From a phage: a stretch of 64,000 bases of DNA. A program made the position numbers and the translations under genes. Under the pieces are notes generated by a model. The model made no database searches. It had not been told where the DNA came from and saw only the letters and a list, made by a program, of their open reading frames with translations. Positions 3,532-26,405 of the stretch are shown here, piece by piece. Position 1 is the stretch's first letter. Each line of letters opens with the position of its first letter. The stretch lies in the sequence record PZ049694.1. One strand, given 5' to 3'.

Positions 3532-3817
3532 CTGTGATTTCGGTTACGATATCTTTGTTATCGAAATTAGGGTCACAATACAAAACATAGTTGTACTGCA
3601 TGATACCGCCAGACTTAAGTTGTTCAACAACTTTATTAACCATATTAGGACGGTCTCGTTTAGTGATGTTCATGATATCAGAGAAGATTTGTTGTTCAAC
3701 ATCTTCTTGATTTGCAGTCATTGACCACTCACAGAGGTCTTTATCATAACCTGCCGTAACTGGAGCCGGTGCACATGATACTGCAAGTAAGATTGCTGCC
3801 AATGATAACTTTTTCAT
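3524..3817 (-). CDS. sp: Spackle periplasmic superinfection-exclusion protein
   Basis: 97 aa; signal peptide; AGYDKDLCEWSMTA and LKSGGIMQYNYVLYCD as remembered for T4 Sp. Confidence 0.75.
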   Translation of the reverse strand: MKKLSLAAILLAVSCAPAPVTAGYDKDLCEWSMTANQEDVEQQIFSDIMNITKRDRPNMVNKVVEQLKSGGIMQYNYVLYCDPNFDNKDIVTEITGE

Positions 3818-3846
3818 TTTAACTCCTTAGTTGATTTGATAGGACT

Positions 3847-3875
3847 ACTATACTATAGTCCATCTATAATGTAAA
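3847..3875 (-). promoter_or_regulatory. early-type sigma70 promoter cassette
   Basis: Minus strand: -35 TTTACA, 17-bp spacer, -10 TATAGT; inverted repeat aggacta...tagtcc spans the -10; upstream of sp. Confidence 0.5.
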
Positions 3876-3880
3876 CAAGT

Positions 3881-4129
3881 TTATTCTTTTTCGCGAATAA
3901 TAATTACTTGTTGAGGCTGTAGAGCAGATTTCTTTTCGGCAACGATAGACCAAATTAAAGTTCCAATCCAACCAACCATCGTCCAGTTAAAGAGTAAAGA
4001 TACGAAGAAGATTGCTGTTGTGCTTTTTGTGCCACGAATAAGTGCGATTACCCAAGGCAACATGTAAATGATGATTGAACCAATACCTGCGATTAAAACT
4101 GCTACTGAACTAGCTACGAATAATTCCAT
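3881..4129 (-). CDS. small membrane protein (82 aa, two hydrophobic helices)
   Basis: Hydrophobic segments VAVLIAGIGSIIIYMLPWVIALI and IFFVSLLFNWTMVGWIGTLIWSIV. Confidence 0.55.
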   Translation of the reverse strand: MELFVASSVAVLIAGIGSIIIYMLPWVIALIRGTKSTTAIFFVSLLFNWTMVGWIGTLIWSIVAEKKSALQPQQVIIIREKE

Positions 4130-7650: not shown

Positions 7651-8815
7651 CGAAATCTTCCATTTCGTCAAGGTCGTTTTCTATATCTGCTGCAGACGGA
7701 GCATCAGAAGTTTTAACCGGAACTTTAGTTGTTGCTTTGCAATTAATAAGGTCGTTAACAGCATCATCAACTTCTTTAATAGAAGAGATAGCACCTAGTT
7801 TATATTTAGTTTCAATTGCATCTCGGAAAGGTTTGTGTTTAAACAACGGTCCCCAGAATTCTACACAATCAGTAGCTTTAGCACGCCATGATTTTTCTTC
7901 ACGAATCATTTCACCTGTTTCTTCGTCAAGGAATTCTCGAGCATACCAACCAGCTTTAGGCTTAACCACAAAACCGATTTCAGTTGCCATTTCTAACAAG
8001 CCACTGAATGGGTCGATACCACCATCGAAATTAACCGTGATTGGGAAAGTAGATTTCTCTTTAACTGTACGAGATTTTTCTGCTTTCAACGTGAAGTCAT
8101 AACCGGTCAATTCTGTACCTTCTTTAACCTGACGTTTAGAGATAAAGAATACAGTGTTAGCAGAGTAAAGAATACCTGTACCACCACCCATAATCTCTTT
8201 AGGATACAATCCGCCAATTTCCATTGCTGTATGGTTAATTGCAACACACGGAATATCTTTAATAGTCAGATACGGTGTCACAATACGGAAAAGAGATTTA
8301 AGTGCCTTAGCACGAGACATATCACCTACGACTTTCTCGTTCAATGCATCTTCGGTTTCTTTCTTAGATGCAGTATTACCGATTGAATCGATAAAGATAA
8401 TAACTTTATCACCGCGTTCAATAGCGTCAAGCTGATTAGTCATATCAACTTTAAGTTGTTCGACAGATTGAATCGGAGTATGAACTACACGGTCTAAATC
8501 AACACCCATTGAACGAAAATAAGATTCTGAAGCACCAAATTCTGAATCATAGAACAAACAAATTGCATCTTTATATTTCTTCATATATGCTGCAACCATG
8601 GTCAGCCCAAACAACGTTTTAAAGTGTTTAGAAGGAGCAGCAAAAATAGTTAAGCCTGATTGCAACCCGGCATTCAGTGCACCACCTAATGCAATATTCA
8701 ACATCGGAATACGAGTAGGGACTTCATCACGATTATTAAACAGCTTAGACTTAGTCAAGTCTGCAGTCATTTTAGAAGTAGAAGCTTTAATCAGACGAGA
8801 TTTTAAATCAGACAT
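7643..8815 (-). CDS. uvsX: RecA-like recombinase UvsX
   Basis: 390 aa; N-terminus MSDLKSRLIKASTS and core motifs as remembered for T4 UvsX. Confidence 0.9.
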   Translation of the reverse strand: MSDLKSRLIKASTSKMTADLTKSKLFNNRDEVPTRIPMLNIALGGALNAGLQSGLTIFAAPSKHFKTLFGLTMVAAYMKKYKDAICLFYDSEFGASESYFRSMGVDLDRVVHTPIQSVEQLKVDMTNQLDAIERGDKVIIFIDSIGNTASKKETEDALNEKVVGDMSRAKALKSLFRIVTPYLTIKDIPCVAINHTAMEIGGLYPKEIMGGGTGILYSANTVFFISKRQVKEGTELTGYDFTLKAEKSRTVKEKSTFPITVNFDGGIDPFSGLLEMATEIGFVVKPKAGWYAREFLDEETGEMIREEKSWRAKATDCVEFWGPLFKHKPFRDAIETKYKLGAISSIKEVDDAVNDLINCKATTKVPVKTSDAPSAADIENDLDEMEDFDE

Positions 8816-8914
8816 TGTATTTTTCCATAGGCATCATTATATTTTACTCATGTTTAAAAGATAAGACGATTATATACTAAGGGTTATACAGCATTTAAAA
8901 CTTTAAACAGGCTC

Positions 8915-9463
8915 TTAACGAGCCCATTTGATAATTTCTGTAATCAAATAATTACGTTCGCTTGCATTAAATCCTATAACTTTGTTAGCACCGTCATGAT
9001 TAAGTAATTGATACGTTTGGATTTTGTTATGAATTGCAAACTCTTCAAAATATGAAATGACTGTATTAAAACCGAACGAAGACAAAGTAATAAGGTCGTC
9101 TTCAAAACTTTCAGTCATTTCGTTACGTGTTAAAATAATTGTGAACACATCATGGTTTTGGCAAAGACGAACATAATCCTGTTCATAAACGTCAAGAACC
9201 GAGTCCGCATCTTGTCGAATACGTCCATAAACCCAGTTACTAATATATCCACGGTCTAACAGATAAATCTTAGTAGGGTCTAAATAATTCAACATCGTTT
9301 CGAAACAGCCAACTTCATTTCGAGACTTAACATCGAAACGTCCATCAACTGTTCGTTTAGGGAAATCAATCTTTACATATCTTTCACTAATTTCCATTAT
9401 GTCATTAATGAAAGTTGTTTTACCAGCATTATCCGGGCCATCTACTAAAATAATTTTAGCCAT
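8915..9463 (-). CDS. P-loop kinase, thymidylate/dNMP-kinase-like
   Basis: 182 aa; Walker A GPDNAGKTT; LLDRGYISNWVYG resembles the TMP-kinase DRx..S..Y motif. Confidence 0.55.
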   Translation of the reverse strand: MAKIILVDGPDNAGKTTFINDIMEISERYVKIDFPKRTVDGRFDVKSRNEVGCFETMLNYLDPTKIYLLDRGYISNWVYGRIRQDADSVLDVYEQDYVRLCQNHDVFTIILTRNEMTESFEDDLITLSSFGFNTVISYFEEFAIHNKIQTYQLLNHDGANKVIGFNASERNYLITEIIKWAR

Positions 9464-9464
9464 T

Positions 9465-10364
9465 TTATTCCTCGATTACGACATCTTCATATTTAGGTAT
9501 ATTATACGGTGAAGAAATTAAAGCATTAAAGTAGATGAACTCACCAAGACCTGGATGGAATACTTCTTCAGGATTTTCGAAATATTGAATCTTCGGTCTT
9601 CCTTTAAGAATTTGATAGTACTCAGTTTTAGTTGGTTTAAAAATTCGAATCAGTGCTTCTTCAGGATACTTATTTCTGTCGAAGCTATTATTTGGATCGG
9701 TTATATAAAGCGGTTGACCTAATTGAATTGCGCATTCAACCACTTGTTCAAAACGATAACACGGGTCACTAATTCGAAATGGATGAAAAATACCATCTAG
9801 ATGAATAGGGGCCAAATCACCTACAAGACGCTGCATGATGGAAGGACGTATAACTTTCTGCGTTACGATAATCTTATTACCATCTGCACCAGCGTTAACC
9901 AGCACTTCCTTTTGACGTTTATTCAACACAGTAGTTTGAAGTGAACGATTAACCGACAACATATCGGTTTTTAAGAATTCGTCAATATAAAAACGTGGTT
10001 TATTAGGGTCTGCAGTGATATTGAAATTGAATTCCACATCAAAAGCGCCGTCATATCCAGTGATATCTGTGATTAGAAAATCACAATCATAATAAGCAAT
10101 TAATGAATCAACCACAAATTCATTTTCAGACCAGAAATATTTACGAGTGTTATACGCGTTATCTTTATACCATAATGGAACAAACTTAAATTCTGGGAAA
10201 AGACGTTCACATTCTTTAATATCAGATGCATTACGTGGATATGTAATCACATCACCCGGATTAGCACGGTGCAAATGAAGTTGGAAGTTGCCATCCTTAA
10301 GGATAGCATACTGTCCAGTTTCATAAGACCGCATACTCAAGATAGGTACGCGGAAAATAGCCAT
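9465..10364 (-). CDS. hypothetical protein (299 aa), candidate sugar transferase
   Basis: Occupies the slot where T4 has beta-gt; no recognisable motif; start overlaps the 42-like stop (TAATG). Confidence 0.5.
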   Translation of the reverse strand: MAIFRVPILSMRSYETGQYAILKDGNFQLHLHRANPGDVITYPRNASDIKECERLFPEFKFVPLWYKDNAYNTRKYFWSENEFVVDSLIAYYDCDFLITDITGYDGAFDVEFNFNITADPNKPRFYIDEFLKTDMLSVNRSLQTTVLNKRQKEVLVNAGADGNKIIVTQKVIRPSIMQRLVGDLAPIHLDGIFHPFRISDPCYRFEQVVECAIQLGQPLYITDPNNSFDRNKYPEEALIRIFKPTKTEYYQILKGRPKIQYFENPEEVFHPGLGEFIYFNALISSPYNIPKYEDVVIEE

Positions 10365-11080
10365 TAGTCAAGGAATCCTTTAACATAATCAAAATCACGT
10401 TCAAACACATGGGCACTTACCATGGTATGAGTATAATCACCAACTTCTACACCACATTCGTTAGCGATATAATGAAGTAATTTTCCTTGGAGATAAAAAT
10501 CTAACTGCATAACAACAGCACAGTTCTGAGAACGCATATGGCAGTGGGTATAAAGCTTACCATCACGAATATAATAAGTCACTGAGTCAGTACATGGATA
10601 TTCAAGCGTTTCGTCCGAATCAAGCAAAGCCTGATCTGAACTTTCAAGAATTTGAAACACAACTCTTCGTGAATTAGGTTTCTCTTTAAGTTCTTTTAGA
10701 AGAGCTGGTAATTGGGCCGCAATGCGAGGACCATAGAAAGTGTTGAAGTTCGCCGGCAAAACATCTGATTTTGGTTTAGAAATAAATTTAGCGACATTAG
10801 GATATGCCTTAAACGCTTCTTCTGCGTTGGTACCACCAGAAATCATAAACTTCCAGAAGTCTTCGGCATATTCATAAGAGATGCGGTTAATACGTGGGTC
10901 AGTCATTTTGAATGATGACGGAGTGTCAACAACTACTGTCATAGACCCAATTTCATTACAACGTCCAATACGAGAATCAGTTACGAATTCCGGGTTTTCT
11001 AAAATTTCACGATTGACTGCTTTAAATGCGGTTTGAAAATCTGCGGCTTTGATATATTTCATTGTGTTATGTTTTCCCAT
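10364..11080 (-). CDS. 42: dCMP hydroxymethylase-like enzyme (thymidylate synthase family)
   Basis: 238 aa; TS-family active-site region EYPCTDSVTYYIRDGKLYTHCHMRSQN; divergent from remembered T4 gp42. Confidence 0.7.
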   Translation of the reverse strand: MGKHNTMKYIKAADFQTAFKAVNREILENPEFVTDSRIGRCNEIGSMTVVVDTPSSFKMTDPRINRISYEYAEDFWKFMISGGTNAEEAFKAYPNVAKFISKPKSDVLPANFNTFYGPRIAAQLPALLKELKEKPNSRRVVFQILESSDQALLDSDETLEYPCTDSVTYYIRDGKLYTHCHMRSQNCAVVMQLDFYLQGKLLHYIANECGVEVGDYTHTMVSAHVFERDFDYVKGFLD

Positions 11081-11359
11081 GTTTACCTCAATACAATTTA
11101 TTATATACTCAATTCGTAAAGCTTATTTGAATTTCTTGACAATGTTGATATAACGTAAAGCTTCAGCATCGATACTTCCAAGAACACTATGAAGAAATGC
11201 ATCAGCGTAGTATTCCAATTGAACAGGTTTCTTTAATCACTTTAGCCGCTTTAGTTTCAAACAGGCCCATCAGGGCCTTTTTAAGAATTTGTTCATTAGT
11301 GTTCAGTTTCATAGTCAAAATCTCTTCATTAAGTTGGTGGTTAAAAGTTTTTCTAGAAA

Positions 11360-12520
11360 TCATTCCGGGTACCTCAAAGCGTCATCAGAGTTAGTTATAT
11401 CAATAATAGATATAGAGTTTTCTGCTAACCCGTTTTTAGATAATTGACGTTTATAATATCTTTCACAATATGTACACGTCGTCCCGCAGATTTCATTAGC
11501 ACAATCGAAATCTGGATGTCTGAACCACCTTTTTTCTAAAAAGCCATCTAACAAAGAGGTTTCAATATTTACTGTATGTGAAAACTCTGTCTCATTTTCA
11601 AGAGTGAAAATGGTCTCTAAAGGCTTCCACAGTTCTAACAAATTACCTTCAAACTTTTCAGAAGCGTATGCTTCAAGAACTTTCAAAATGTAGTCTGTGC
11701 TACCTGTACGTCCTGAAACTTTGAATTGAGTGATACCAATATCATTATAAAGTTTCAAATCTTGAGGACGAACAAAACGAGTTCTCAACCAGTTAAATGG
11801 ATCTGTATCACGAGCTTTAATACAATGTTGCATTGGATATCCATTTAAAGATTTGGCATCATCTACTGTAACATCGGTGCTATGGAAAATATAGCAAGAG
11901 TCACGATAACTACAATGTGTTGTATACCCTTTACCAGCATTAGAACAGAACTCATTTACAAGAACTTCAAATATTATATTGTTCTTATTACAAAACTCTG
12001 CTGCACGCTTCAGGAAAGAAACTGAACGGTTTTTATGAATTCCGCAGCAGACCTTTTTGATATTATATTGGTCATGCAAGTATTTGATTTGAGTTACAGC
12101 ATCGACATGTAGAATTGTTGAAACTTCAATCTCAATGTCTTTATTGACTTCACGAACAATTTCCATAACAACAGGGTTAGCGATAGTAATACGCCATACG
12201 CCTATTGACCAAAGATACTGAACATAATCCTGAATAGCTTTCTTCTTCCACTCAACTAGTTCTCTTTTTGAACCAGGATTTATCGTGTTGAGTGTATAGT
12301 TAAAGCAAATACCTAATTCGTTACAACGTTTAACGTAATCTTCTAACATCTTTTTGTCAACGTCAGGAAGCCTAAAATCAGGTCTGGCTGCTACAAAAGC
12401 CATTTCTCTTGTAGAGCCGTATACTTCATTTATCAAGCTATTAGGATAAGTTTTATTGAGCTCTACGATTTTATCAAGAAGAGCTAAATCAAAATTCGTT
12501 CCGATTTTAAAAGTATTCAT
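11360..12520 (-). CDS. Cys-rich enzyme of unknown function (386 aa)
   Basis: 13 or more Cys; C-terminal CANEICGTTCTYCERYY contains a C-x3-C-x2-C pattern; possible Fe-S or metal site. Confidence 0.5.
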   Translation of the reverse strand: MNTFKIGTNFDLALLDKIVELNKTYPNSLINEVYGSTREMAFVAARPDFRLPDVDKKMLEDYVKRCNELGICFNYTLNTINPGSKRELVEWKKKAIQDYVQYLWSIGVWRITIANPVVMEIVREVNKDIEIEVSTILHVDAVTQIKYLHDQYNIKKVCCGIHKNRSVSFLKRAAEFCNKNNIIFEVLVNEFCSNAGKGYTTHCSYRDSCYIFHSTDVTVDDAKSLNGYPMQHCIKARDTDPFNWLRTRFVRPQDLKLYNDIGITQFKVSGRTGSTDYILKVLEAYASEKFEGNLLELWKPLETIFTLENETEFSHTVNIETSLLDGFLEKRWFRHPDFDCANEICGTTCTYCERYYKRQLSKNGLAENSISIIDITNSDDALRYPE

Positions 12521-12577
12521 TTTTTTACATCTCGCGTTAATTGATGCGATGGTTTTTTGCAGGTCTTACTTAAATTA

Positions 12578-12979
12578 TTATAGATTCGGTTTATATGATT
12601 TAAATGTTTCGAATTCGCCTTTATTCATAAGAGCTTTGAATTCGTCAGGACGCATAGCTTTGTCGTCGATAATCCAATCATATACTGGTTTATGTGTTAG
12701 CAAATTATGGTACTTCAAGCCAATGTTTGCCAAGTTCTGAATCAGACTTGGGAGAATGTCAATTGCTATACGACCAGGACCTACTGACTTCATACCGCGA
12801 GCAGTGTAAAGCGTTATTGTATGCCCTGCATCATACAGGGCATTAATGGCAGACACCATTTCGACGTCTGGTTTGAAGTTCACGTAATCACGATTGTTAT
12901 TCCACTCTGTTATACAATCATCGACATCAAAACAAAGATTAAGCATGTTTTCTACACGGTGCATTAGATTCGTTCCCAT
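12578..12979 (-). CDS. HAD-superfamily phosphatase (small, 133 aa)
   Basis: Motif I FDVDDCIT (DxDxT); overlaps the upstream gene by 16 nt. Confidence 0.65.
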   Translation of the reverse strand: MGTNLMHRVENMLNLCFDVDDCITEWNNNRDYVNFKPDVEMVSAINALYDAGHTITLYTARGMKSVGPGRIAIDILPSLIQNLANIGLKYHNLLTHKPVYDWIIDDKAMRPDEFKALMNKGEFETFKSYKPNL

Positions 12980-14649
12980 TGATGAGTGATATCGCCACCG
13001 ATTGGACGATAAGAAACACCAGTTTCTTTATCAGTTAGTACCCATTTACCAGGATTTTTTGTAATCAGAGTAGCCGTTACAGGTTCTGCTACGTCATAAC
13101 TAATAGAGCCGTCTTGAAGTACACGGCCCATGTTACGTAATTGTTTAGTCAGAAGTTCCATACCTTTATAATATGCGGCTACCGCTTTAAGTGGATTATT
13201 CTTGAAATAACCACCTAATGCAATCCAGATAATTGCAACTGCCAAATGATGATACTCGTTAAACGAACTCATCTTTCCATATTTGTAAACTAATGGATTG
13301 ATGTTAATAGTCACATTACAAGTTGTTTCATCAATAGTAAACTGTCCCCAGGTCGGATTAGCGTTGAATTCATCATACCCTGAAACAGCATAAAGCACTT
13401 TAGCTTCGTCATACAATTTTGGTCCGTAAATCTTGGTTTCGCCAAAATATCCACGAGGGTCGATAAACTTGACTTCGCCATTATCAGTAATCATAGTATT
13501 ACTGAAGTTCGGGTCACCATGAATAACAGAGTACTGTCCCTGAGAACGGTTATGATAACGAATAAGGTGTTCTAAAGCTTGTTTCAGCATTGGCTTCAGA
13601 CGCCCAATCTTAGTGTAGTTCACATGTGTGATTTTACCAAATGAATCAATCAATGGTTGAATACTTTCACAACGATCAATAACTTTCGTATAGAACTCTT
13701 TAGTGAAATCACGACGAACAGTTTCAGGACTTACAAAATAAGTGTCTGTGCTGAATTTCAGTGCATCTAAAATTGCATCAACAATTTGTGGACGAGCAAG
13801 ACTTGATTTGGATTTAATATATTCAAATGCCGGCTTACCTTTAATGCGTTCCATTTCAAAGTTATTTTCATTAACAGAAACTAACTGAGGAACTGAATCT
13901 GATTTCACTTTAAGATACCATGAAATCTCATCTTTCTGAAGAGCTCGACCCTGTTCGGTTAATGCGAATTTAGTTACAGTTTCTTCACCGATTTCAACTG
14001 CATTAAAACTACGATTAAGTTCACGAACTTCATGAGCTTTTTCAAGTTTAGGCATATCACCTAAATCAATTAGATTCATAAGCTCTGATTTATTGAATGC
14101 ACCGCTGTAAAGGAATTCTACGAAATCACGTCCTTTGCAGTATTCATGAATTTCCTCATCAGTAGAACCCATATAGAATTCCCAGTCTTTGAACTGATAA
14201 ATTCCTACAACATTACCACCTGTTGAACCTACGTTAGTGATATTTTCACCGTCGAAATTATATCGACATTCGTCGCCCTTAACATAGATTGCGTTAACAT
14301 TCCAAGACCATGAACCAAAATCGGGAATAATATCACACCAGTTAACAATTACATTATGGCCGTTTAAATCTTTGTGTAATTTAGCAAGAGCATAAGCAGA
14401 ACCATACGCTTCATCAACTGTACGAATAGTCACATTGAACCCTTCTTGCTCACAATAAGCTCGAACAGTTTCAGCAAATTTTGAATGAACTACTACAATA
14501 ATTTCGTCTGCGCCAAGGTCAGAATAAATTGTATACAAATTGCTCAGAATAGTGTCTTGTTTATAGTTAACAAGCACCTTAGGAATATGATGCGTTATTG
14601 GATACAAACGAGTTGCCAGTCCAGCACCAAGAATAACAGCTTTTTTCAT
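12964..14649 (-). CDS. bifunctional sugar-1-phosphate nucleotidyltransferase / APH-type kinase
   Basis: N-terminal ILGAGLATRL (GxGxR of NDP-sugar pyrophosphorylases such as LicC, MurU, RmlA); C-terminal VIHGDPNFSN Brenner motif and FIDPRG (APH/choline-kinase fold). Confidence 0.75.
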   Translation of the reverse strand: MKKAVILGAGLATRLYPITHHIPKVLVNYKQDTILSNLYTIYSDLGADEIIVVVHSKFAETVRAYCEQEGFNVTIRTVDEAYGSAYALAKLHKDLNGHNVIVNWCDIIPDFGSWSWNVNAIYVKGDECRYNFDGENITNVGSTGGNVVGIYQFKDWEFYMGSTDEEIHEYCKGRDFVEFLYSGAFNKSELMNLIDLGDMPKLEKAHEVRELNRSFNAVEIGEETVTKFALTEQGRALQKDEISWYLKVKSDSVPQLVSVNENNFEMERIKGKPAFEYIKSKSSLARPQIVDAILDALKFSTDTYFVSPETVRRDFTKEFYTKVIDRCESIQPLIDSFGKITHVNYTKIGRLKPMLKQALEHLIRYHNRSQGQYSVIHGDPNFSNTMITDNGEVKFIDPRGYFGETKIYGPKLYDEAKVLYAVSGYDEFNANPTWGQFTIDETTCNVTININPLVYKYGKMSSFNEYHHLAVAIIWIALGGYFKNNPLKAVAAYYKGMELLTKQLRNMGRVLQDGSISYDVAEPVTATLITKNPGKWVLTDKETGVSYRPIGGDITHQWERI

Positions 14650-14690
14650 GTTGTGGTCCTCATTGGTAAGTAGGAGTATTGTACACTATT

Positions 14691-14834
14691 CTAGTTAAAG
14701 CATTCATACTTTGCTTGTAGTCCAATCATAATCCATCCAATTACAAGTGTCGGAATCATTACTGGAGCCGTTAAGCTCCAGTAGATAGTCATGACAAGCA
14801 TCAATAGTAAAAGTCCTATTGTTATTGCTTTCAT
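14691..14834 (-). CDS. small hydrophobic protein (47 aa)
   Basis: MKAITIGLLLLMLVMTIYWSLTAPVMIPTLVIGWIMIGLQAKYECFN; ATG overlaps the SIS gene stop (ATGA); below track cutoff. Confidence 0.35.
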   Translation of the reverse strand: MKAITIGLLLLMLVMTIYWSLTAPVMIPTLVIGWIMIGLQAKYECFN

Positions 14835-15466
14835 TGTTCGCCTCGTAACATGGCACCTAGTGCACCGCCAGGGTGGAACTTAAGGAAGTCATTAGAGGTA
14901 AATCCACGTTCAGACGAAAGGTTGATAGCAAACGTATCGATAAGCGCTAACAACAATGTAGTGGACATGGTCGGAGCCAGAGAATTCTCATCGACCTCTA
15001 CCGCGATGCCTGTACAGAAAGAGTAATCAAAAAGGGCTTCATTTTCTTGTGGAATGTCTGGGTTACAATGCAACAGAATTTGTTTGACGTTCGGACGAAT
15101 CATTTTAAGATGCTTAGCCACGCCTATCATTTCTTCAGTTTTACCAGAACGACTAATATGAATCAACACATCATTAGGCGCAATGAATCCTGCATCACCG
15201 TGAGAATAATGCCCAGTGTTCAAGTACATACTCGGGATACCGAGTGAAGCAAATGTCTCAGAAGCTTTAGTTGCAATATTAGCATTCTTACCAACACCTG
15301 TAATAATTACTCGGCTTTCATAATTACTAAGTCCCGGACGTCGAAGAGTTTCTAGAATAGCATTATAACGAGCAGGGTTTTGACTAATTACTTTGGCCAT
15401 AGCGGCCAAAGAAGAAGCTTGTTTTATGATTGCGTCAATAGCGATAGTAATAGGAGTAGTTTTCAT
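14831..15466 (-). CDS. SIS-domain sugar-phosphate isomerase, arabinose-5-phosphate isomerase-like (no CBS domains)
   Basis: 211 aa; SIS motif ITGVGKNANIA; C-terminal FLKFHPGGALG matches the KdsD/GutQ/KpsF signature. Confidence 0.7.
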   Translation of the reverse strand: MKTTPITIAIDAIIKQASSLAAMAKVISQNPARYNAILETLRRPGLSNYESRVIITGVGKNANIATKASETFASLGIPSMYLNTGHYSHGDAGFIAPNDVLIHISRSGKTEEMIGVAKHLKMIRPNVKQILLHCNPDIPQENEALFDYSFCTGIAVEVDENSLAPTMSTTLLLALIDTFAINLSSERGFTSNDFLKFHPGGALGAMLRGEQ

Positions 15467-15506
15467 ATTTCTCTCATTTAATTAGTTTACCGTCCATGTC
15501 ATTATA

Positions 15507-18218
15507 TCAAAAATCGAACATATCGAATAGAGATGCTTTCTTCTCGTAATCGAGTTTCGCTGCTGATGTGAATCCTTCAAGTGGTTTAATAAATGTCTTC
15601 TCAAGGAGAACAGTGTAGTCCATCCAATGAAGTACGTCGTCTTTAATTAAATCTGTGATTTCAGTACCAGAAGGCCATGCGATACATTTATCACCGAATG
15701 GGTTTCCTTCACGTAAAGGCAGAACATATACTTTTTCACCTTCTACAACTTGCGGCGCATCGATATTACCTTTGATAGCACGGTTATACGTCAGAATTCC
15801 ACGAATATGGAACGGGCATTTGGGACCAGGGAATCCACCTACATCATATTTAGCAATGTTATTCGCAGAAGATACCGACGCGATGCTAATATAATTCAAT
15901 TGACGGAATTCTTTTTCAAACTCTTTAAAATATTCTTGTAATGATTCTTCACCTTCTTGAAGCATACGACGAATACATTCTTTAAGAGCTTTCTGTACTG
16001 CTTTAGGAGTCGAAGATTTCTGCGTTTCAAGACCCATGATTTTAAGCTTAGGTTCAGCGTATCTGGTTCCTTCCATATCCCACACGTTTAATGCATAACG
16101 TTTCTTACCAGTCCAGAATCCACCAATACCTTTAGAACCGAGCGGAGGACCAGCGATAGCTTCTCGGTCCATGAACATTAAGTGTTGTTTATTGTTCATG
16201 TATTCACACATTTCACGGAAACCTCTATCAATAGCTGGTTCCATACGTTCACGAGCGAACTTATCTAAGAAGTCTACCCAATGGTTGGTATCACGGAATT
16301 TAGATTCACCAACCTTATCGATAATTTTATCAGCAGATACGTAAATAGAGTCTGTATCACCATAAAGAACGAAAGCTTCACCTTCTGTACCACAAACTTC
16401 GTTCAGATATTCATTAACTTTACGTTCAATCCACTGTAAAGCCATTTGCCCGAATGTTGTGATTGCAGTAGCATTACGCAAATCATAATAACGAAACCAA
16501 ACGTTGCCAAGTGCACCATAAAGTGAGTTGATAAGCAATTTACGGTTAATTTGGGCAGTCATACCTGCAACTTCAGTACGTTGAGCTCTAAACAACATTT
16601 CATTAAGAGATTTAGCAGACAACTTTTTAATCTTTTCTTTAATCTCATCGCTGAAGTCGAAACGATAATCAACATCTAATGGTTCGTCAACAGAAAGATT
16701 AGGATTATGCAATGCCTCTTTAATTATTTCGCCATTACGTTGAGCCGCAAGCATATAACCTTTATGTTCTTTACGTTGATTAAAGACTTTAGTGATTTCA
16801 GTTGGAACAACACCATCACGGTCTTTATAATACATCATGCCGTTAGGAGAACAACTGTACACATCAGAAGGACGTTCAGCGATTGCGTTAATATAATCAT
16901 GCAATGGAGCTACTTTAAACGTTCCTGCTATTGTTTCTGGGCTAATATTCACTTGGCGAATAATACTTGGATACAGAGATGTAAGGTCGAAACTCATTAC
17001 ATATTTGTATCGATTTGGAATAGGTTCCTTAACAAAAGCGCCAGGATAAGGTTGAACCGGGTGAGAACGACCTTGTGGAATCACCTTGTTCTGCTCTTTA
17101 AGGCTATTAAAAATAATAGCATCCCATGTTTTAATTGGGCTAAACACAGATTGAATCTGTATCTTAGCATAATAACCCATGTCCAAACTCAAGTTGATGA
17201 ACTGACGCTTAGCATCAATTTGCAATACACGATACACGTCGATAATGTTATAAGAAATATATCGTTGGTGATTGCTTTCACGAAGCTTAGAAATAGGGCC
17301 GTCATATTTCAGTTTACCAACGTTCAATTCAAATTCTGAAATGTAATCCAGAGAATATGATGGTTGGTTAGTAAAAGAGAATTTTTTGTAAAGGTCAATG
17401 TAATCAAGAACAGAGATACCGAACAATGTAATGATTTCACGAGAACCATACATGTTTTCGATAACTTTAACACGAGTTTTACGATGTGGTGATAAACGTT
17501 TCGCAGTAGATTCGCCAAAAATATTCTTGATTCGGTTATACACATATGGAATATCAAATGACTCAACGTTCCATCCAGTCAAAATGACAGGAGTTTTCTG
17601 TTGCCAGAAGTTGAGATATTCCATCAACAATTCTTTTTCGTTATCGAACGGCATATAAATGATTTTATCGATAATTTCGGATGGAACTTCATCACCACCT
17701 TGTTCTTGAAGCTTAGCCGCAATTTCGATAGACCATTCTTCTACATTACCATATGGAGAATTCAATAGATCAAATACGTAGAACCTGTCGTCAATTGAGT
17801 CATAATGGGTGATAGCATCAATTGGATGTTTTGCTTGTGACGGCTCAGGGAACCCGTCAGGAGATGTTACTTCGATGTCGAAGTTAGCCACACGAATTTT
17901 TGTATGGTCGTATTTGATTTCATAGTTATAAGTGTCAGACAAATACGCCAATTTGAAATCGTCCATGCCAAGTGCTTCAAGTCCGATATCTTCCATGCGT
18001 TTAATCCATTGGGAGGCATCACGCATATTAGCGAACAACTTACGAGTACACGGCTTACCGTAGATATCGAAATATTTCGTAGCCTGACTTTCTGGACAAT
18101 GAGCAAACAGTGATGGTTTATATTCTACTTCACGAGTACGTTCACGGCCATTAGAATCGATGTAACGTTCAAAAATTGAATCACCAATCTGTTCAACCGT
18201 TAAGTAAAATTCTTTCAT
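15507..18218 (-). CDS. 43: DNA polymerase gp43 (family B)
   Basis: 903 aa; exo motif FDIE; polymerase motif LYGDTDS; N-terminus as remembered for T4 gp43. Confidence 0.95.
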   Translation of the reverse strand: MKEFYLTVEQIGDSIFERYIDSNGRERTREVEYKPSLFAHCPESQATKYFDIYGKPCTRKLFANMRDASQWIKRMEDIGLEALGMDDFKLAYLSDTYNYEIKYDHTKIRVANFDIEVTSPDGFPEPSQAKHPIDAITHYDSIDDRFYVFDLLNSPYGNVEEWSIEIAAKLQEQGGDEVPSEIIDKIIYMPFDNEKELLMEYLNFWQQKTPVILTGWNVESFDIPYVYNRIKNIFGESTAKRLSPHRKTRVKVIENMYGSREIITLFGISVLDYIDLYKKFSFTNQPSYSLDYISEFELNVGKLKYDGPISKLRESNHQRYISYNIIDVYRVLQIDAKRQFINLSLDMGYYAKIQIQSVFSPIKTWDAIIFNSLKEQNKVIPQGRSHPVQPYPGAFVKEPIPNRYKYVMSFDLTSLYPSIIRQVNISPETIAGTFKVAPLHDYINAIAERPSDVYSCSPNGMMYYKDRDGVVPTEITKVFNQRKEHKGYMLAAQRNGEIIKEALHNPNLSVDEPLDVDYRFDFSDEIKEKIKKLSAKSLNEMLFRAQRTEVAGMTAQINRKLLINSLYGALGNVWFRYYDLRNATAITTFGQMALQWIERKVNEYLNEVCGTEGEAFVLYGDTDSIYVSADKIIDKVGESKFRDTNHWVDFLDKFARERMEPAIDRGFREMCEYMNNKQHLMFMDREAIAGPPLGSKGIGGFWTGKKRYALNVWDMEGTRYAEPKLKIMGLETQKSSTPKAVQKALKECIRRMLQEGEESLQEYFKEFEKEFRQLNYISIASVSSANNIAKYDVGGFPGPKCPFHIRGILTYNRAIKGNIDAPQVVEGEKVYVLPLREGNPFGDKCIAWPSGTEITDLIKDDVLHWMDYTVLLEKTFIKPLEGFTSAAKLDYEKKASLFDMFDF

Positions 18219-25864: not shown

Positions 25865-26405
25865 ATAAAAAATCCAAACTAGGCGAATCGCTAACAACTT
25901 CCTTCTTTTCAGCCCCAGGAGCTTTATAAGCGGATTCTTCATAATGCGTCATTTTATCGTAGATGTCTTGAATAAACGTTTCATCTACCAACGCTACCAT
26001 ATCATCGTCATGACTGTCGTAGACATTATGAACGAAGTAACTATATTTCTTTGCAACTTCCTTACGTTCTTTTTTGATACGTTGGACAAAAGCATTAAAA
26101 CAAGCTCGAGTTATGTATGCATGTGGGTTATTGTACTTAGTTTCGTCGAAATTATGAAGTCCCTTAATAGAGGCTTCAATCCCATCTGCAATCATCTCCT
26201 GCTTCCAAGACTGGGTATATCCTGAAAAGTTGAAACGTTTGGACAGGCCTTCGGCGATAAGCATAATTGCTAAACCGATGGTATCATTCTGACGAATAAT
26301 TTTGTTTGGGTCTTTATTATTTAAGAGCTCCTTTTTCCACTCGATTATAGCGGCGAGAAGCTCTTTATTATTCACATAGTTATTTTTAGGTTTTTGTCCA
26401 GTCAT
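25848..26405 (-). CDS. 55: late-transcription sigma factor gp55
   Basis: 185 aa; [49 protein letters not shown] near-identical to remembered T4 gp55. Confidence 0.92.

Follow-up and report, generated by a model that had tools for sequence, protein, structure and literature searches.

An RB69-like phage locus that very probably encodes the sugar-activation half of the published arabinosyl-5-hydroxycytosine DNA modification module

Introduction

Arabinosylated 5-hydroxycytosine is present in the DNA of phage RB69, and related glycosyltransferases use UDP-arabinofuranose (UDP-Araf) (Lee 2026). The genes behind this modification have been published as a UDP-D-arabinofuranose pathway feeding 5-hydroxycytosine arabinosylation (Thomas 2018; Lee 2026; He 2026, as summarized by Lee 2026). 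RB69 gp53:52 was shown to be one ORF, ORF055c and ORF53_52c were named as UDP-arabinose candidates, and a Butyrivibrio protein was found that joins an ORF53_52c-like region to a SIS domain (Thomas 2018). In the summary of He 2026 given by Lee 2026, the kinase domain of HY126 AfhE converts arabinofuranose-5-phosphate (Araf5P) to Araf-1,5-bisphosphate, and the HAD protein AfhF, a Mg2+-dependent phosphatase, then strips the 5-phosphate to leave Araf1P for the nucleotidyltransferase domain. The locus described here carries the same genes as the RB69 and HY126 Afh systems, is 98 to 100% identical to RB69 with matching gene order and neighbors, and departs from them by strain-level differences only.

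Bacterial pathways offer more distant parallels. The GmhA-HldE-GmhB route to ADP-heptose runs through the same four kinds of step: isomerization by a SIS enzyme, phosphorylation of a sugar phosphate at its anomeric carbon, removal of the distal phosphate of the bisphosphate by a HAD phosphatase, and nucleotidyl transfer. There too, kinase and transferase share one polypeptide, although the substrate is a heptose rather than a pentose and the fused enzyme is an analogue of the phage protein, not a homologue. HldE consists of a PfkB kinase and a cytidylyltransferase-fold domain, whereas the phage enzyme has an RmlA/GlmU-type NTP_transferase domain and an APH-type kinase domain in the opposite order. 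The AmgK-MurU and LicA-LicC pairs belong to the same domain families as the two halves of the phage enzyme, but they are separate proteins, take unphosphorylated substrates (MurNAc and choline), and need no phosphatase step.

The isomerase has two sets of relatives. E. coli KdsD, GutQ, and KpsF share its predicted reaction, and KdsD is 37% identical to it with active-site positions and the HPGGALG motif kept; unlike the phage protein they carry a tandem CBS pair, and they feed Kdo synthesis, while the phage product would feed DNA glycosylation. The arabinose-5-phosphate isomerase (API) of Bacteroides fragilis (PDB 3etn) and the 5uqi protein, which we take to be E. coli CFT073 c3406, have the SIS domain alone (198 to 220 aa) and end right after HxGG(Y/A)LG, but they are bacterial, are linked to functions of the capsule or of genomic islands, and are roughly 35 to 40% identical to the phage protein as judged by eye from the alignment. 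Mosberg in 2011 and Chiu/Cech in 2014 are said to have described API activity for these single-SIS-domain enzymes (3etn and 5uqi). Our own literature search on CBS-less API enzymes (c3406, single SIS) returned nothing relevant.

Results

The window, a stretch of 64,000 nucleotides from record PZ049694.1, comes from a Mosigvirus, an RB69-like T4-type coliphage, and its module is 97.8 to 98.6% identical to RB69 and relatives. The ORFs for the SIS protein, a 47-aa protein, the fused enzyme, and the HAD protein all lie on the minus strand at the coordinates that the first-pass annotation had given. Each of the four matches a PHROG family (E values from 7e-27 to 7e-295) and has hundreds of phage homologues, which argues that these are real genes and not chance ORFs. 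Identity to the RB69 proteins is 100% for gp55, 98.1% for gp53, 99.7% for gp52, and 99.2% for gp51, and the SIS, fused, and HAD proteins are orthologues of gp55, gp53:52, and gp51, respectively. Scans of positions 8800 to 15600 found promoter matches (22, against 25.4 expected from shuffled sequence) and terminator matches (4, against 3.8) at chance level.

The module lies between gene 43 (DNA polymerase) and uvsX, together with genes for a ThyA-like synthase, a nucleotide kinase, and a glycosyltransferase, and the same arrangement recurs in phages IME523, LC53, F48, and MX01. Beyond the HAD gene, also on the minus strand, lie a U32-family protein equivalent to RB69 gp50 (11360..12520; Pfam Peptidase_U32, 6e-11), a ThyA-like 5-hydroxy-dCMP synthase equivalent to gp48 (10364..11080; Pfam Thymidylat_synt, 2e-15), a putative first DNA arabinosyltransferase equivalent to gp46:47 (9465..10364; a single ORF of 299 aa), and a thymidylate-kinase-like nucleotide kinase equivalent to gp45 (8915..9463), identified by its P-loop GPDNAGKT, the RB69 annotation, and Table 1 of Lee 2026. 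The ThyA-like protein differs from PDB 9iqc at 5 of 238 residues, and RB69 gp48 has been experimentally demonstrated to be a 5hodCMP synthase (Lee 2026). The same study found gp46 and gp47 to be one ORF split by a sequencing error, with a model resembling glycosyltransferases. In the old RB69 record, sequencing frameshifts split both the fused enzyme and this glycosyltransferase, whereas both are intact single ORFs here.

This setting bears on whether the genes might instead be a moron that alters a host surface polysaccharide through Kdo, capsule, or LPS heptose synthesis. Database names and public phage annotations (KpsF, "capsule biosynthesis phosphatase," "phosphoheptose isomerase," GlmU) would suggest as much, and KdsD and KpsF do normally supply Kdo synthesis. 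However, the corresponding slot in T4, from DNA polymerase to uvsX, holds the DNA-modification genes 42 and beta-gt, and the genes always accompany those for the ThyA-like 5hodCMP synthase, the nucleotide kinase, and the glycosyltransferase. Genes for Kdo8P synthase, CMP-Kdo synthetase, and heptose synthesis are absent, the "phosphoheptose isomerase" label is a misannotation of a HAD-fold protein, and arabinose has been demonstrated chemically on RB69 DNA. We therefore regard a surface-polysaccharide role as extremely improbable.

The SIS gene (14831..15466, minus strand) encodes a 211-aa protein that is 100% identical to RB69 gp55 and matches Pfam SIS (E value of 1e-10). Pfam detects no CBS domain in it, while the same search finds CBS in KdsD at an E value of 3e-14, and in the alignment with KdsD the phage protein ends at the point from which KdsD extends a further 125 residues or so through its CBS pair, as the first-pass annotation had described. 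KdsD of B. pseudomallei has a SIS domain and two CBS domains (B. pseudomallei KdsD paper). The motif FLKFHPGGALG named in that annotation is present, but not at the very end: the C terminus reads FLKFHPGGALGAMLRGEQ, and HPGGALG stops 7 residues short of it.

Subfamily comparisons agree with an API assignment. The NCBIfam profiles kpsF (E value of 2e-32), KdsD (7e-31), and GutQ (9e-23) match over their SIS part only (profile positions 2 to 153, 47 to 202, and 41 to 195, respectively), and neither GmhA nor any other SIS subfamily profile in NCBIfam scores comparably. The protein thus shows family-level similarity to KpsF/GutQ/KdsD (TIGR00393 and NF008141) while lacking the tandem CBS domains, and it scores below the curated full-length cutoffs (112.9 bits versus 203.7, and 107.7 versus 505). 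Its PDB matches are 3etn (2.6e-25), 5uqi (4e-23), and 2xhz (3.5e-19). The first two, of 220 and 198 aa, align over query residues 46 to 206, and with about 200 residues, one SIS domain, and an end shortly after H-x-G-G-x-L-G, the phage protein falls in the single-SIS-domain API group. K60, H89, E112, E157, and H198 are invariant across the phage protein, its IME523 counterpart, and KdsD, where they align with K59, H88, E111, E152, and H193, which we take to be the active-site residues given in the KdsD structural literature. The API-type best matches in PDB and NCBIfam and the retention of all five positions uphold the earlier proposal and support the prediction of a KdsD/KpsF-type API without CBS domains that would convert D-ribulose-5-phosphate (Ru5P) to D-arabinose-5-phosphate (Ara5P). 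The literature that we searched contained no report of enzyme activity for the phage protein itself. In phages of the genera Dhakavirus and Marfavirus the module is otherwise complete but lacks a SIS gene, so the SIS step is not obligatory; we infer that it adds to host KdsD/GutQ activity without being an absolute requirement.

The 561-aa bifunctional enzyme (12964..14649, minus strand) is equivalent to RB69 gp53:52 and analogous to HY126 AfhE. Its N-terminal part matches Pfam NTP_transferase (8e-10, aa 3 to 99), its best PDB sequence match is LicC (1jyk, 1.9e-5), its NCBIfam matches include MurU equivalogs, and MurU (4y7t) was the top Foldseek match in Lee 2026. The C-terminal half gives weak kinase-fold Pfam matches at aa 308 to 409 and has kinase-type motifs (HGDPNFSN at 377 and IDPRG at 396), and the MX01 and F48 homologues exceed the Pfam APH cutoff. 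Judging by these similarities, residues 1 to about 215 appear to be a sugar-1-phosphate nucleotidyltransferase, and residues from about 216 to 561 an APH/choline-kinase-like sugar kinase. Pfam returned neither a PfkB nor a CTP_transf_like match, which places the protein outside the ADP-heptose pathway family.

The next gene (12578..12979, minus strand) encodes a small cap-less HAD phosphatase equivalent to RB69 gp51 and analogous to HY126 AfhF. The first-pass annotation had described a 133-aa HAD protein with the motif FDVDDCIT; the motif is there and 133 aa is the length of the maximal ORF, but the product is probably 128 aa, starting at a second ATG at 12964 (tcTAATGcac), which overlaps the stop codon of the fused gene by 1 nt. 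This is also the start in the RB69 annotation and in the crystallized 9iqw construct, to which residues 5 to 133 are 100% identical. DVDDCIT (18 to 24), TAR (59), HKP (96), and DDKA (105) align with DLDGT, TAR, GKP, and IDDRA of PDB 1xpj (match at 5e-10) and supply all four HAD motifs (D18-V-D20-D-C, T59, K97, and D105-D106), which bears out the call of a HAD phosphatase. Sequence similarity relates the protein to NCBIfam TIGR01689, the EcbF-BcbF capsule biosynthesis phosphatases (E value of 4.3e-13), but with 49.3 bits against a cutoff of 162 it is not a member by the NCBI criterion. An AlphaFold2 model of the 128-aa form, built without an alignment, had a mean pLDDT of 37.9, too low to be of use. 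A homologue from phage DLP3 has GmhB as a structural match (Lee 2026).

The HAD superfamily also contains mutases, and motif I has both of the aspartates that mutases and phosphatases need, so that a beta-phosphoglucomutase-like enzyme turning Ara5P directly into Ara1P, with the kinase domain serving another purpose, might be imagined. To our knowledge, however, HAD mutases require a cap domain, and this protein is a cap-less core of 128 aa whose nearest named families are phosphatases (TIGR01689). With AfhF itself reported as a Mg2+-dependent phosphatase in Lee 2026's account of He 2026, a mutase seems most improbable. We propose instead that the phosphatase takes Araf-1,5-bisphosphate to Araf-1-phosphate.

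Between the isomerase and the fused enzyme sits the 47-aa hydrophobic ORF that was noted earlier (14691..14834, minus strand), a small membrane-type protein equivalent to RB69 ORF054c and assigned to phrog_3610 (7e-27). It has a GRAVY score of +1.36, two hydrophobic stretches, and an ATG that overlaps the SIS stop codon (caATGAaa) with GAGG upstream. The link to the pathway implied by its position does not hold: tblastn finds the ORF in 580 phage records, Tequatrovirus among them, with 17 invariant positions in the family alignment, and the homologue comes after imm both in VR26 and in T4, whose unannotated 49-aa ORF lies between imm and gene 42; both genomes lack the arabinose-pathway enzymes. 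Because its homologues adjoin imm in phages without these enzymes, we reject it as a pathway-specific membrane partner; it is a conserved T-even-wide gene, unrelated to arabinose, that sits within the module by chance.

Discussion

Our results lead us to conclude that this locus is very probably the sugar-activation half of an arabinosyl-5-hydroxycytosine DNA hypermodification module operating by a UDP-arabinofuranose route. The argument joins protein identity and architecture, near-identity to RB69 and to crystallized proteins, and synteny, all observed here, to DNA chemistry and HY126 enzyme activities taken from the literature. We infer that the HY126 and RB69 activities carry over to the present phage and that UTP is the nucleotide. 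The CBS-less SIS enzyme would convert host D-ribulose-5-phosphate to D-arabinose-5-phosphate, which the C-terminal kinase domain of the 561-aa enzyme would phosphorylate at C1 to arabinofuranose-1,5-bisphosphate; the small HAD phosphatase would then take off the 5-phosphate, and the N-terminal nucleotidyltransferase domain would join arabinofuranose-1-phosphate and UTP into UDP-arabinofuranose. Phage glycosyltransferases would finally move the sugar onto 5-hydroxycytosine, the base being made as 5-hydroxy-dCMP by the ThyA-like enzyme. This step order is taken from Lee 2026's summary of He 2026. For Mosigvirus NP, the arabinose precursor was still described as unclear in a paper from June 2026, a point against this reconstruction.

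The first-pass annotation was right that the isomerase, the fused enzyme, and the phosphatase form a single pentose-activation pathway, but it had the phosphatase release a free pentose from the isomerase product: HAD would turn Ara5P into D-arabinose, an anomeric kinase would make Ara1P, and the nucleotidyltransferase would make NDP-arabinose, much as in Fkp or AmgK-MurU salvage. Table 1 of Lee 2026 labels the proteins in exactly this way (gp51 is the protein that "dephosphorylates Araf5P to Ara," while the C-terminal domain of gp52:53, the kinase, is the one that "phosphorylates Ara to Araf1P"), and the APH/choline-kinase-like fold, near glucosamine kinase and AmgK-type enzymes, usually takes unphosphorylated substrates. 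However, the text of Lee 2026 that recounts the AfhE/AfhF reconstitution puts the kinase first and the HAD enzyme on the 1,5-bisphosphate (Ara5P to Ara-1,5-P2 to Ara-1-P). Moreover, in every genus examined (Mosigvirus, Kanagawavirus, Winklervirus, Marfavirus, and Dhakavirus) the HAD gene adjoins the kinase/transferase gene on its downstream side and is translationally coupled to it by overlapping stop and start codons, and release of a free pentose would cost a phosphate bond and let a diffusible intermediate escape. We consider the free-pentose order improbable; going by the account of He 2026 in Lee 2026, probably no free pentose is formed and the earlier placing of the phosphatase was wrong.

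The neighboring U32 gene leads us to a more speculative point. The U32-family member RlhA makes 5-hydroxycytidine by means of Fe-S clusters and prephenate, and the U32 gene has a translationally coupled partner in two phages, LC53 of Serratia and F48 of Klebsiella: it is followed there by a gene for a type II chorismate mutase, which produces prephenate. The U32 gene is found at 80% identity or more in 222 phage records, whose hosts are facultative anaerobes, and is essentially absent from the 57 records in which phages of Acinetobacter, a strict aerobe, have SIS and HAD genes. The U32 protein might be an O2-independent, prephenate-dependent cytosine C5-hydroxylase that gives 5-hydroxycytosine when the ThyA-like synthase, taken here to be O2- and flavin dependent, cannot work; we offer this tentatively and hold it to be possible but, on balance, doubtful. 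The protein has no PDB sequence match at an E value of 0.01 or better, and at 21% identity to UbiU and 13% to UbiV, its distance leaves the alignment of Fe-S cysteines ambiguous. If the proposal is true, gut phages could use UDP-arabinose on 5-hydroxycytosine without O2.

The UDP-D-arabinofuranose gene set is real, but it has already been published and is not new. Mahler 2025 reportedly also counts among the publications on the UDP-arabinofuranose pathway of arabinosyl-5-hydroxycytosine phages. The novelty implied by the first-pass annotation falls away, as the exact phage module is in print and the PDB already contains API enzymes without CBS domains (3etn and 5uqi); what stands of its reading is the API-type isomerase, the HAD phosphatase, and their shared pathway, and what does not is the step order, the part given to the 47-aa ORF, and the novelty. 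Our reexamination adds a corrected step order, the accessory standing of the SIS gene, the separation of the 47-aa ORF from the pathway, and a testable hypothesis for the U32 protein.

The biological significance of the module is already established in the literature. It supplies the sugar donor for mono- and di-arabinosyl-5-hydroxycytosine DNA hypermodification, which gives RB69-like phages protection against restriction enzymes and influences how sensitive they are to other defense systems, and DNA arabinosylation thereby has a bearing on the therapeutic use and the engineering of phages.

Locus and phage identity

The genes surrounding the four ORFs encode homologues of UvsX, the gp43 DNA polymerase, gp45, gp44/62, and gp46, which identifies the window as T4-type phage DNA. 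A megablast search with positions 8900-15500 gave 152 phage records with query coverage of 80% or more, headed by Shigella phage phi25-307 and Escherichia phage ST0 (98.6%) and RB69 (97.8%), which places the phage in Mosigvirus. All four ORFs lie on the minus strand (12578-15466), at the positions that the first-pass annotation gave, and their RB69 equivalents are ORF055c, ORF054c, ORF053c plus ORF052c, and ORF051c. Identity to RB69 is 100% for the SIS protein, 99.2% for the HAD protein, and 98.1% and 99.7% for the two halves of the fused enzyme. Two genes split in the RB69 reference (NC_004928), ORF046c/047c and ORF052c/053c, are intact single ORFs in the window (9465-10364, 299 aa; 12964-14649, 561 aa), in agreement with the published attribution of the RB69 splits to Sanger-era sequencing errors.

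Isomerase, fused enzyme, and phosphatase

The 211-aa SIS protein (14831-15466; RB69 gp55) had been described as a KdsD-type arabinose-5-phosphate isomerase (API) without CBS domains, and its sequence supports both parts of this description. Pfam finds a single SIS domain in it and no CBS; in the control, E. coli KdsD, both were detected. Direct alignment gives 37% identity to KdsD, which runs about 125 residues beyond the point where the phage protein ends, and the active-site positions of KdsD (K59, H88, E111, E152, and H193) are all conserved. The top NCBIfam matches, to the KpsF/GutQ subfamily and to the KdsD and GutQ equivalogs, cover the SIS part only, and the full-length cut-offs of these models are not reached. 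The HPGGALG motif is present, but its placement at the extreme C terminus was wrong, as 7 residues still follow it. The nearest solved structures are 3etn (220 aa), 5uqi (198 aa), 2xhz (the SIS domain of KdsD), and 3fxa; since the best two, 3etn and 5uqi, are single-domain proteins that end shortly past the same motif, the phage protein falls into an already existing class of CBS-less KdsD-type isomerases.

The 561-aa fused enzyme (12964-14649; RB69 gp53:52) combines an N-terminal sugar-1-phosphate nucleotidyltransferase domain with a C-terminal protein-kinase-like domain carrying HGDxxxxN and, downstream, IDPRG. Its homologues in Escherichia phage MX01 (43% identical) and Klebsiella phage F48 pass the Pfam APH cut-off.

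All four HAD motifs are present in the 133-aa ORF (12578-12979; RB69 gp51), which bears out its assignment as a HAD protein. A second ATG at 12964, where TAATG overlaps the stop codon of the fused gene, gives a 128-aa product; this is the RB69-annotated start and also that of the crystallised construct (PDB 9iqw, 100% identical to residues 5-133), and the protein is probably 128 aa long rather than 133 aa. This length and the motif position are the only corrections to an observation that is otherwise confirmed. The structure 1xpj is related, as is TIGR01689 ("capsule biosynthesis phosphatase"), although the score is under that model's cut-off. The widespread label "phosphoheptose isomerase" on this HAD-fold protein, including in PHROG 1238, is a mis-annotation. 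Public records also widely mis-annotate homologues of the fused enzyme as "GlmU" and those of the adjacent U32 protein as "peptidase" or "collagenase".

The published pathway and the order of its steps

Arabinose was detected on RB69 DNA by Thomas et al. (2018, PMC6024577), who showed ORF053c and ORF052c to be one 561-residue gene divided by a sequencing error. For UDP-arabinose synthesis they put forward ORF055c and ORF53_52c, one of their grounds being a Butyrivibrio protein in which a SIS domain is joined to an ORF53_52c-like region. The chemistry has since been revised to mono- and di-arabinosyl-5-hydroxycytosine, with 5-hydroxy-dCMP made by the ThyA homologue gp48 using O2 and flavin, and the conversion of Ru5P to NDP-arabinofuranose has been ascribed to gp55, gp52:53, and gp51 (Lee et al. 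2026, PMC13326640). The single pentose-activation pathway of the first-pass annotation is supported. Related phage glycosyltransferases accept UDP-Araf as donor in vitro.

The same annotation had the HAD protein releasing a free pentose ahead of the kinase step, an order that is probably wrong, even though "free arabinose" labels still stand in Table 1 of Lee et al. 2026 (PMC13326640). According to the account of He et al. 2026 cited in PMC13326640, the bifunctional AfhE of phage HY126 converts Araf5P to Araf-1,5-bisphosphate, the Mg2+-dependent HAD phosphatase AfhF takes off a phosphate to leave Araf1P, and AfhE then produces UDP-arabinose. Gene order agrees with this kinase-first sequence, as the HAD gene lies directly downstream of the fused gene and overlaps it in every genus examined. 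The phage HAD protein thus probably acts after the kinase, on the 1,5-bisphosphate, with no release of free pentose. The same step logic is seen in the GmhA/HldE-kinase/GmhB/HldE-transferase route to ADP-heptose, although the two domains of HldE and of the phage fused enzyme are drawn from different families.

Besides 9iqw for the HAD protein, window proteins match 9iqc, 9ir2, and 9iqu (ThyA homologue, 5 of 238 residues differing), and these four structures probably originate in the work of He et al. The module is a published pathway, and its proteins in the window barely differ from those already characterised.

The 47-aa ORF

The ORF between the isomerase and fused-enzyme genes (14691-14834; RB69 ORF054c) is strongly hydrophobic and shares an ATGA stop/start overlap with the SIS gene, both as previously noted. 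It belongs to phrog_3610, and tblastn matches it in 580 phage records, Tequatrovirus included. In T4 the homologue is a 49-aa ORF between gene 42 and imm (minus strand, about 26227-26376 of NC_000866.4; 3728-3877 of the T4 stretch L006) that the reference annotation lacks. An alignment across four genera has 17 invariant positions, and the upstream stop/start overlap is 4 nt with imm (T4, Gaprivervirus VR26) or with SIS (the window, Serratia phage LC53) and 1 nt with SIS in IME523. A part in the arabinose pathway is contradicted by VR26, which has the homologue after imm and none of the arabinose genes. The 47-aa ORF is a small membrane-type gene that T-even phages conserve independently of DNA-modification type, and in Mosigvirus the slot upstream of it is simply taken by the SIS gene.

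The adjacent U32 gene

Directly downstream of the module, on the minus strand, lies a U32-family gene (11360-12520; RB69 gp50), whose product is listed merely as a "sugar or heterocycle reductase" (Lee et al. 2026, PMC13326640). In each of the 222 phage records that contain the gene, a Shewanella phage among them, identity is 80% or more; it is absent from some enterobacterial phages. SIS and HAD genes are carried by 57 Acinetobacter phage records, and from such phages the U32 gene is essentially absent, Acinetobacter falling outside the ten commonest host-name groups of U32-gene records (smallest group, 3 records). In LC53 (L008, 5492-7002) and F48 (L009, 5501-6903), the U32 gene is translationally coupled to an ORF that overlaps its stop codon and encodes a type II chorismate mutase, above the Pfam cut-off. 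In the window, the ORF in this slot (11202-11363, minus strand) has 53 aa, against 79 aa for RB69 ORF049c (3724-3963 of the RB69 stretch L001), because one extra A (gaaAcctg) shifts the frame; this may reflect gene decay or an error in sequencing, and no CM_2 match was found for the ORF in either phage.

RlhA, a U32 protein that produces 5-hydroxycytidine in rRNA, depends on Fe-S clusters and on prephenate, which chorismate mutase makes. The phage U32 protein is too distant from UbiU/UbiV for its cysteine ligands to be judged by alignment. The chemistry of RlhA, the coupled chorismate mutase, and the distribution of the gene are circumstantial evidence that the U32 protein may provide an O2-independent route to 5-hydroxycytosine, complementing the O2-dependent ThyA-like enzyme.

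Distribution and role of the isomerase

What the first-pass annotation described is thus confirmed and most of its functional reading holds, but CBS-less API enzymes are already known, the phosphatase step was probably mis-ordered, and the 47-aa ORF is unrelated. Phage records with the HAD gene number 375, and those with the SIS gene 276. No SIS gene is present in Dhakavirus MX01 or Marfavirus F48, although both carry genes for the fused enzyme, the HAD phosphatase, the nucleotide kinase, the ThyA-like protein, and the glycosyltransferase; MX01 lacks the U32 gene as well. This distribution points to the fused enzyme and HAD phosphatase as the conserved core and to the phage isomerase as an accessory, which most likely boosts an activity that the host already possesses in KdsD and GutQ.
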